The position numbers were made by a program, and so were the translations under genes. Under the pieces are notes generated by a model that worked only from the letters and a program-made list of their open reading frames with translations, was not told the origin of the DNA and did not search any database. Shown piece after piece: positions 59,075 to 59,350 of a DNA stretch of 64,000 nt; position 1 is the first letter of the stretch, and every line of letters starts with the position of its first letter. This DNA comes from an uncultured Clostridia bacterium (GTDB taxonomy: Bacteria; Bacillota; Limnochordia; Darwinibacteriales; Darwinibacteriaceae), in NCBI GenBank assembly GCA_900018335.1, contig FIZK01000006.1:5576-69575 (forward strand). Direction: 5' to 3'.

Positions 59075-59350
59075 CTAAAGCAGTTCCAACAAGCGGTTTA
59101 CTAAAGGAAGCACCACTGTGAAAATCAGCAGCAGCACCACGGCAAGAGAGTAGATGGCACCAGATTCGGAGATGGCCTGGCCCAGGATCATGGTAGTTCT
59201 TATGGACCCCTCCATCTCAGGCTGGCGGGCCATGGCTTCCACGGCTTTCCCAGCGACATAACCTTCTCCAATACCAACCAGTCCGCCGGCAAGCAGAGCA
59301 ACACCAGCACCGATGGCAATTGCGGCGACTATAATGGCAATCTCTAGCAT
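59075..59350 (-). CDS. atpE: F0F1 ATP synthase subunit c
   Basis: Hairpin protein with a [20 protein letters not shown] loop region and carboxylate helix [15 protein letters not shown]; 91 aa. Confidence 0.9.

Follow-up and report, generated by a model that had tools for sequence, protein, structure and literature searches.

Does the ATP synthase of an uncultured Limnochordia bacterium run on sodium ions, on protons or on both? The question is raised by atpE, the gene of an F-type ATP synthase c-subunit (59075..59350, minus strand, stop codon included), which lies in a stretch of 64 kb of contig FIZK01000006.1. This whole stretch was analysed and is called the window below; all coordinates refer to it. 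An original prediction, drawn from the sequence of the window, had described the gene product as a c-subunit with a two-carboxylate, Na+-type ion-binding site and had suggested a Na+-coupled or Na+/H+ promiscuous enzyme. The suggestion is still the best-supported reading, although the Na+ motif is incomplete: the subunit has a glycine where Thr67 usually sits, and this is no mere detail. With modest confidence we lean towards a Na+-competent site and towards Na+ or mixed Na+/H+ coupling in Na+-rich digesters.

The atpE product as an F-type rotor subunit

The open reading frame (ORF) encodes a protein of 91 amino acids (aa), and its ATG start codon is preceded at a distance of 6 nt by a GGGAGGG ribosome-binding site. 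The product passed the cut-offs of both family models, with 56.2 bits for Pfam ATP-synt_C PF00137 (cut-off 24) and a score of 62.2 for NCBIfam TIGR01260 (cut-off 43.95). It also shows the features of a c-subunit hairpin, namely the loop ARQPE and the carboxylate of helix 2, Glu62, which corresponds to Glu65 in the numbering of Ilyobacter tartaricus. The AlphaFold (AF2) model is a helical hairpin with helices at residues 2-42 and 44-90 and a pLDDT of 92.8. The gene adjoins the genes of the a (atpB), b (atpF) and delta (atpH) subunits in an atp cluster on the minus strand, and an identical protein is found on 334 public contigs under the name 'ATP synthase F0 subunit C [Limnochordia bacterium]'. 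We conclude that atpE is a genuine, previously annotated gene for an ordinary F-type rotor (c) subunit.

Alignment with solved c-rings

A phmmer search against all PDB chains placed residues 5-78 of the c-subunit on residues 8-81 of the Fusobacterium nucleatum ring (3ZK1, E = 6.8e-22) and on residues 8-81 of the I. tartaricus ring (1YCE, E = 2.8e-21), in both cases without a gap. From here on we use the I. tartaricus numbering, which is the query numbering plus 3. The equivalent residues (query first, 3ZK1/1YCE second) are E29 and E/Q32, I60 and V63, S61 and A64, E62 and E65, S63 and S66, G64 and T67, A65 and G68, and Y67 and Y70, so that the ion site reads E32, I63 (backbone), S64, E65, S66, G67, A68 and Y70. 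A residue-for-residue match to the two Na+ rings had been claimed on inspection, and it holds: GIGEGY in helix 1, the string in helix 2 and the equivalences of Glu32, Glu65, Ser66, Gly67 and Tyr70 were all exact. The alignment likewise bears out the arrangement of two carboxylates together with Ser66 and Tyr70. As in F. nucleatum, Glu32 lies opposite Glu65, with the GIGEGY of helix 1 and the ES of helix 2 running ungapped along 3ZK1.

All four best sequence matches in the PDB were Na+ rings (c1 and c2/3 of Acetobacterium woodii, F. nucleatum and I. tartaricus). The best H+ ring, that of Spirulina (2WIE, E = 7.5e-13), was nine orders of magnitude weaker in E-value. We also ran the structure-based comparison that had been proposed with the prediction. 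Searching with the AlphaFold model, Foldseek returned 1YCE, 3ZK1 and 4BEM_A (A. woodii c2/3) as the top three PDB matches, all of them F-type Na+ rings. The sequence thus resembles Na+ rings far more than it resembles any H+ ring, which speaks against a site made for protons only.

In 3ZK1 the Na+ ion is bound by Glu32 Oe1, Val63 O, Glu65 Oe1, Ser66 Og and one water molecule; the water is hydrogen-bonded to Ala64 O and Thr67 Og, and Thr67 touches the water only (PMC3692424). In the same structure Glu65 is locked by Tyr70 and Ser66, and Glu32 is permanently protonated and thereby Gln-like (PMC3692424). All four direct protein ligands have counterparts in the Limnochordia c-subunit, as has Tyr70. 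Only the Thr67 hydroxyl, the second-shell partner of the water, is lost, and a hydroxyl is gained at position 64 (Ala to Ser). Apart from position 67 the marks of a Na+ site, that is Gln/Glu at 32, Glu65 followed by Ser/Thr66, and Tyr70, are all in place. They are not equally informative: in the alignment the Spirulina H+ ring (2WIE) also has Gln and Tyr at positions 32 and 70, so neither Tyr70 nor Gln/Glu32 is Na+-specific, and only Ser66 and position 67 discriminate. The pair of Ser66 and Tyr70 had been offered as a feature that H+-type Bacillus subunits lack; of the two, the serine keeps its value as a Na+ marker and the tyrosine does not.

Among the characterised rings the closest likeness is to the c11 ring of F. 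nucleatum (3ZK1/3ZK2). Both have GIGEGY with Glu32, Glu65/Ser66/Tyr70 and the loop ARQPE, the identity over the Foldseek alignment is 58%, and both subunits come from F-type operons. They differ in that Thr67 is replaced by Gly, Gly68 by Ala and Ala64 by Ser, that GLGPGIGEG reads GGLVGIGEG here (G27L, P28V), and that the Limnochordia cluster is without atpAGDC. With the c11 rings of I. tartaricus and Propionigenium modestum (1YCE/2WGM), which have the canonical Na+ site, the subunit shares the fold, the register, Glu65, Ser66, Tyr70 and the backbone ligand at residue 63; Gln32 is Glu here, Thr67 is Gly, and the helix-1 glycine motif is interrupted. The A. woodii ring (c2/3 and c1, 4BEM), again from an anaerobic member of the Bacillota and with AtpI in its operon (PMC4320612), is among the top PDB matches in sequence and fold. 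It differs by a Q...E-T-T motif, several atpE copies and a fused c1, whereas the Limnochordia cluster has a single atpE with E...E-S-G.

The interruption in helix 1 concerns the glycine packing motif GxGxGxGxG of the Na+ c11 rings (AGLGPGIGEG), which is broken by G27L and P28V at 59260-59290 (atpE codons 22-30). Changes in the glycine motif alter the stoichiometry of the ring in I. tartaricus and Bacillus pseudofirmus and, to our knowledge, every characterised Na+ F-type ring is a c11 ring. The Limnochordia ring, with its interrupted motif, may therefore not be c11.

Conservation and origin of the Gly67 site

Among the 120 closest homologues of the c-subunit, position 32 was Glu in 119, and Glu65, Ser66 and Tyr70 were present in every sequence. 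The set was divided between the motifs [S/T]-E-S-G-A...Y (103 sequences) and x-E-S-T-G...Y (17 sequences), and each of the 103 sequences with Gly67 carried Ser or Thr at position 64. We calculated a neighbour-joining tree that was rooted on the Spirulina H+ subunit and included the Na+ ring sequences from the PDB. The protein is short and the tree accordingly weak, but its pattern was clean: the 103 Gly67 sequences formed one clade, nested within a grade of Thr67 (E-S-T-G) sequences, and some E-S-T-G relatives had a site identical to that of F. nucleatum. Given this placement of the Gly67 clade, its ancestor had the full Na+ set, and the step from Thr67 to Gly is derived. The apparent order in the tree leads from AESTG with GLGPGIGEG, identical to F. 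nucleatum, to SESTG, next to SESTG with G(A/G)GVAIAEG and finally to SESGA with GG(L/M)VGIGEG. Ala64 would accordingly have changed to Ser before Thr67 was lost, and G27L/M and P28V in helix 1 would have arisen alongside. Position 27 is Leu, Met or Ala in the Gly67 clade, where the interruption of the glycine motif is fixed. Seen against its relatives, the ion site is a variant, specific to its clade, of the two-carboxylate Na+ site already known.

Comparison of atpE with the genes of four related metagenome-assembled genomes (MAGs), whose c-subunits are 92-95% identical, gave 31-40 synonymous and 5-7 non-synonymous codon differences. Even the ligand codons varied synonymously between the MAGs (GAA/GAG, TCT/TCC/TCG, TAC/TAT). 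These figures show strong purifying selection on atpE and thus an active maintenance of the polar site after the loss of Thr67. Such maintenance is expected if Na+ binding still matters; a pure H+ site could do without it. Nothing would oblige a ring converted to protons to keep Ser66, and the retention of this residue in all homologues counts for Na+.

An exhaustive search of representatives returned mostly fused c-subunits with several hairpins. They included giant proteins of 4 to 13 hairpins (P0122 with 968 aa, P0138 with 447 aa, P0121, P0123 and others), several of which read E...[VI]-E-S-A-A...Y, with Ala at the equivalent of position 67 in most hairpins. Small residues (Ala/Gly) at this position beside E...ES...Y occur in other lineages, too, and small non-polar residues there seem to be common in multi-hairpin metagenomic rotors.

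Sodium, protons or both

If the site binds Na+, as we tend to think, it would do so with four direct ligands: Glu32 (presumably always protonated and Gln-like), Glu65, Ser66 and the carbonyl of residue 63. Tyr70 and Ser66 would lock Glu65. The water that forms the fifth ligand would have to do without the Thr67 hydroxyl as a partner; the carbonyl of residue 64 and possibly the new hydroxyl of Ser64 could hold it instead. The loss of one polar group would shift the site towards H+ selectivity and into the range of the Methanosarcina acetivorans ring. Under digester conditions, with a neutral to alkaline pH and Na+ at tens of millimolar, Na+ would still occupy most of the sites in the ring, and the enzyme would be coupled to Na+ or to Na+ and H+ together.

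This proposal follows published work on ion selection. All c-rings are intrinsically H+-selective, and their selectivity rises with the loss of polar groups (PMC7594442); which ion is coupled depends on how many polar groups there are and on the ratio of the Na+ and H+ concentrations (PMC7594442; PMC3692424). The M. acetivorans ring is described as having two glutamates and an equivalent of Ser66, as being without water-stabilising residues, and as coupled to Na+ and H+; its dual coupling is attributed there to a ring that is more H+-selective than Na+-specific rotors and works with Na+ in large excess (bioRxiv 10.1101/2020.12.11.421602; PMC3692424). Going by this description, the A1AO c-subunit of M. 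acetivorans would share with ours the two glutamates, the Ser66 equivalent, the direct ligands and the absence of a water-stabilising side chain. As a functional model of 'medium' H+ selectivity it may be the best available, in the sense that the two could work alike and not that they belong together. The M. acetivorans enzyme is of the archaeal A-type and, as far as the description goes, the Limnochordia subunit adds Ser64 and has Gly instead of a larger residue at position 67. Because Gly is neither polar nor bulky and hydrophobic and leaves room for water, we would place the Limnochordia ring between F. nucleatum and M. acetivorans on the scale of H+ selectivity.

The same facts can be read in favour of protons, and we give H+ coupling a lower though still considerable probability. 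The change from Thr67 to Gly, together with G27L and P28V, would then have removed the bound water and raised H+ selectivity to a point at which protons win under physiological conditions. The only task left to Glu32, Ser66 and Tyr70 would be to surround the protonated Glu65 with a network of hydrogen bonds, as happens in other H+ rings with two carboxylates; S. pneumoniae and M. tuberculosis have H+ enzymes with sites of this kind (PMC3692424). The intrinsic preference of c-rings for H+, which grows as polar groups go, fits such an outcome as well (PMC7594442). Glycine is, however, unlike the bulky aliphatic residues of H+ rings (Leu/Ile/Val, or Met in Burkholderia), and Ser66, which discriminates between Na+ and H+, is invariant among the homologues, while every member of the Gly67 clade has a hydroxyl at position 64. 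In addition Na+ is still used by M. acetivorans, whose ligand set is equivalent.

Several points weigh against Na+ as the sole or a joint coupling ion. Position 67 is Ser, Thr, Gln or Arg in every predicted Na+ enzyme and Leu, Ile or Val in predicted H+ enzymes (Mulkidjanian et al., PMC2359735). The Limnochordia subunit, in which query Gly64 aligns with Thr67, falls outside this published rule for Na+ rings, and the loss of one ligand in a c-subunit with a single hairpin likely hampers Na+ binding (Mulkidjanian et al., PMC2359735). A cautionary counter-example is the N-type c17 ring of Burkholderia pseudomallei (Glu30, Glu61, Thr62, Met63, Tyr66), which was predicted to bind Na+ and proved H+-selective by NCD-4 labelling (PMC5376962). 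Like our subunit it has two carboxylates, a hydroxyl residue at 66, Tyr at 70 and a non-polar residue at 67; it differs by its N-type operon, the bulky Met at 67 and Thr in place of Ser at 66. This result means that ion calls made from the motif fail exactly at position 67. Furthermore, helix 1 is altered near the ion site (G27L/M, P28V), which may affect the geometry of the site. The Pfam scan, which covered 30 window ORFs outside the central ~13-40 kb, brought up no Na+ pump, no Na+/H+ antiporter and no other gene of a Na+ cycle, and our literature search found no paper on ion coupling by the ATP synthase of this lineage. A holoenzyme would need F1 genes encoded elsewhere, as none were found in the window or its near flanks. 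With the motif incomplete at position 67, sequence alone cannot settle the coupling ion. Published mutagenesis of Thr67 was also sought in the literature, and nothing usable was found. For the class as a whole a Na+ cycle is plausible, since cultured Limnochordia have Rnf complexes and an F0F1 ATPase (PMC11456536).

A further reading, which we consider rather unlikely, goes beyond both. It would see a distinct F-type site that was rebuilt stepwise (A64S, then P28V, then T67G/G68A with G27L/M). Ser64 or another water molecule would keep the bound water in place, and the ring would perhaps be larger than c11. The Na+/H+ tuning would be intermediate, and the genes of Fo plus delta would be kept separate from those of F1.

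A split atp cluster

On the minus strand the genes follow the order atpZ-I-B-E-F-H, the canonical order of F-type operons, with atpE as the fourth. The first gene, atpZ (60396..60617), encodes 73 aa of the ATPase_gene1 family (PF09527, 52.5 bits, cut-off 26.6), and atpI (60019..60399) encodes 126 aa of the ATP-synt_I family (PF03899, 35.6 bits, cut-off 25.1). atpB (59385..60029, GTG start, ~214 aa) was identified as the gene of the Fo a-subunit by PF00119 (E = 4e-44) and by alignment with PDB a-subunits; its conserved stator arginine lies in the motif FRLYGNIF. Downstream of atpE follow atpF for the Fo b-subunit (58492..58989, 165 aa; PF00430, E = 1.7e-30; TIGR01144, 118 with a cut-off of 65.5) and, as the last gene, atpH for delta, also called OSCP (57962..58495, 177 aa; PF00213, E = 1.8e-38; TIGR01145, 100.8 with a cut-off of 57.5). 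All six genes lie on the same strand. The longest possible ORF of atpB extends to 60089 with a TTG start, giving 234 aa and an overlap of 71 nt with atpI; in identical loci (for instance L011) gene callers have used the GTG start, with 214 aa and an overlap of 11 nt. The pairs atpZ/atpI and atpF/atpH overlap by 4 nt each, and the overlaps along the cluster suggest translational coupling.

AtpZ and AtpI had been counted as support for Na+ coupling. This argument does not carry, as the two are the usual leader genes of F-type operons and silent on the coupling ion. Pfam describes the family to which AtpZ belongs as a putative transporter of Ca2+/Mg2+. AtpI is an assembly factor of the c-ring (PMC4320612).

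The gene order also bears on whether atpE could belong to an N-type ATPase, an alternative and often Na+-linked enzyme. In full, the order of N-type operons is atpD-C-Q-R-B-E-F-A-G, without a delta subunit. N-ATPase operons, too, can encode an AtpZ-like 'gene 1' protein and a c-subunit with the two-carboxylate motif, and they begin with atpD-atpC (PMC5376962). The cluster here has the F-type order and includes delta. Matches to the models of alternative F1F0 enzymes were weak and far below the cut-offs, with 39.8 against 130.85 for TIGR03322 and 129.5 against 302.1 for TIGR03306. TIGR03321 and TIGR02230 behaved likewise, the latter, which is specific for N-ATPases, reaching 20.9 for atpZ (cut-off 46.7). 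The F-type models TIGR01260, TIGR01131, TIGR01144 and TIGR01145 all passed. On gene order and model scores we rejected an N-type assignment, the probability of which we regard as negligible.

The cluster ends with atpH, a point that the original prediction had missed. A GC-rich hairpin lies just downstream of its stop codon (57921..57946), and a second one (57848-57875) is found between atpH and a convergent SBP_bac_5 gene for a peptide-binding protein (56084..57814, plus strand); both came from a scan for terminator-like structures and together likely mark the end of the transcription unit. The convergent gene leaves no room for atpA after atpH. Upstream of atpZ a promoter-like site was seen at 60720..60748 on the minus strand (TGGATA, a spacer of 17 nt, TATCAT and an extended -10 TG), which matches the consensus weakly; with 2 such sites in the region and 1.7 expected from shuffled sequences, it is not significant alone. 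A six-frame scan of the window detected no P-loop motif of alpha or beta, and contig look-ups found atpAGDC neither in the window nor within ~10 kb beyond its left end and ~5 kb beyond its right end. The flanks beyond the window carry ribosomal, pheST, CinA and FtsH-like genes.

The split is no peculiarity of this contig. Every related locus examined (L002, L007-L017) had a cluster of atpZIBEFH only, with the same synteny of a rimO-like gene, atpZIBEFH and a SNF2 helicase gene, down to relatives whose c-subunits are ~69% identical and in Thr67 and Gly67 types alike. We also looked for an unsplit operon in three more distant relatives (P0105, P0111, P0119), and all had atpZIBEFH only. It is unusual for an atp operon to be divided such that the delta gene stays with those of Fo and the genes of alpha, gamma, beta and epsilon lie elsewhere.

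A cluster without atpA, atpG, atpD and atpC in the 64 kb and in 10 kb to the left, closed by convergent genes with hairpins, might be taken for a remnant or a stand-alone module of Fo plus delta that has lost its F1 partner, in which case the motif of the c-ring would be without bioenergetic meaning. We hold this to be very improbable. All six genes are intact; when species with c-subunits of 92-95% identity are compared, the genes differ at many synonymous sites while the encoded proteins are conserved. The synteny of the six genes in relatives as distant as those named above argues in the same direction. Other bacteria are known whose atp operon is split and whose F1 genes lie at another place, and we know of no role of delta besides the binding of F1. 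On the codon-level conservation of the atp genes we rejected a pseudogene or remnant; the cluster is probably functional, with F1 encoded elsewhere in the genome.

Two observations concern the surroundings of atpH. In L016, a relative of the E-S-T-G type, an ORF of 296 aa without a Pfam match (11395-12285) stands on the same strand directly after atpH, where atpA normally starts. In the window, an ABC transporter cluster of peptide/nickel type (OppB-like, OppC-like and SBP_bac_5; 53682-57814, plus strand) lies between atpH and the SNF2 helicase gene; it is missing in L007 and L016 and present in L017, an insertion/deletion polymorphism.

Host organism and genomic context

The host is an uncultured, spore-forming member of the Limnochordia, and the nearest genomes are MAGs of Bacillota. 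Several independent assemblies from NCBI and JGI contain the identical atp locus. The isolate codes of two of the nearest MAGs look like biogas-reactor series, going by the names. The prediction had spoken of an anaerobic sporeformer. Spore formation agrees with the gene content of the window: a sporulation block at 40877-44202 contains SpoIIGA with an overlapping sigma factor on the minus strand and a second sporulation-type sigma factor with SpoIIR on the plus strand, and genes for SpoIIP (48673-49473) and YunB (8931-9623) are present as well. These genes confirm an endospore programme for this uncultured lineage. An anaerobic way of life is suggested by the digester habitat only. The window ORFs scanned with Pfam otherwise comprised cell-wall, sporulation, ABC peptide transport and housekeeping genes only.

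Implications for ion selectivity and digester physiology

For the field the finding is no surprise; it is a useful lead for work on ion selectivity and on the physiology of Limnochordia in digesters. The sites of the clade form a natural series, from AESTG through SESTG to SESGA, that could be used to gauge how much the water held by Thr67 contributes to Na+/H+ selectivity, a question so far approached mainly by simulation and with a few distant natural examples. Should the enzyme turn out to be H+-coupled, it would be the second documented case, after the Burkholderia N-ATPase, in which a 'Na+ motif' has misled annotation. If the ring binds Na+, this abundant uncultured lineage of Limnochordia in biogas reactors would run a sodium or a mixed sodium/proton energy economy, and this would bear on how its members manage in digesters, where energy is scarce and salt and ammonia are high.

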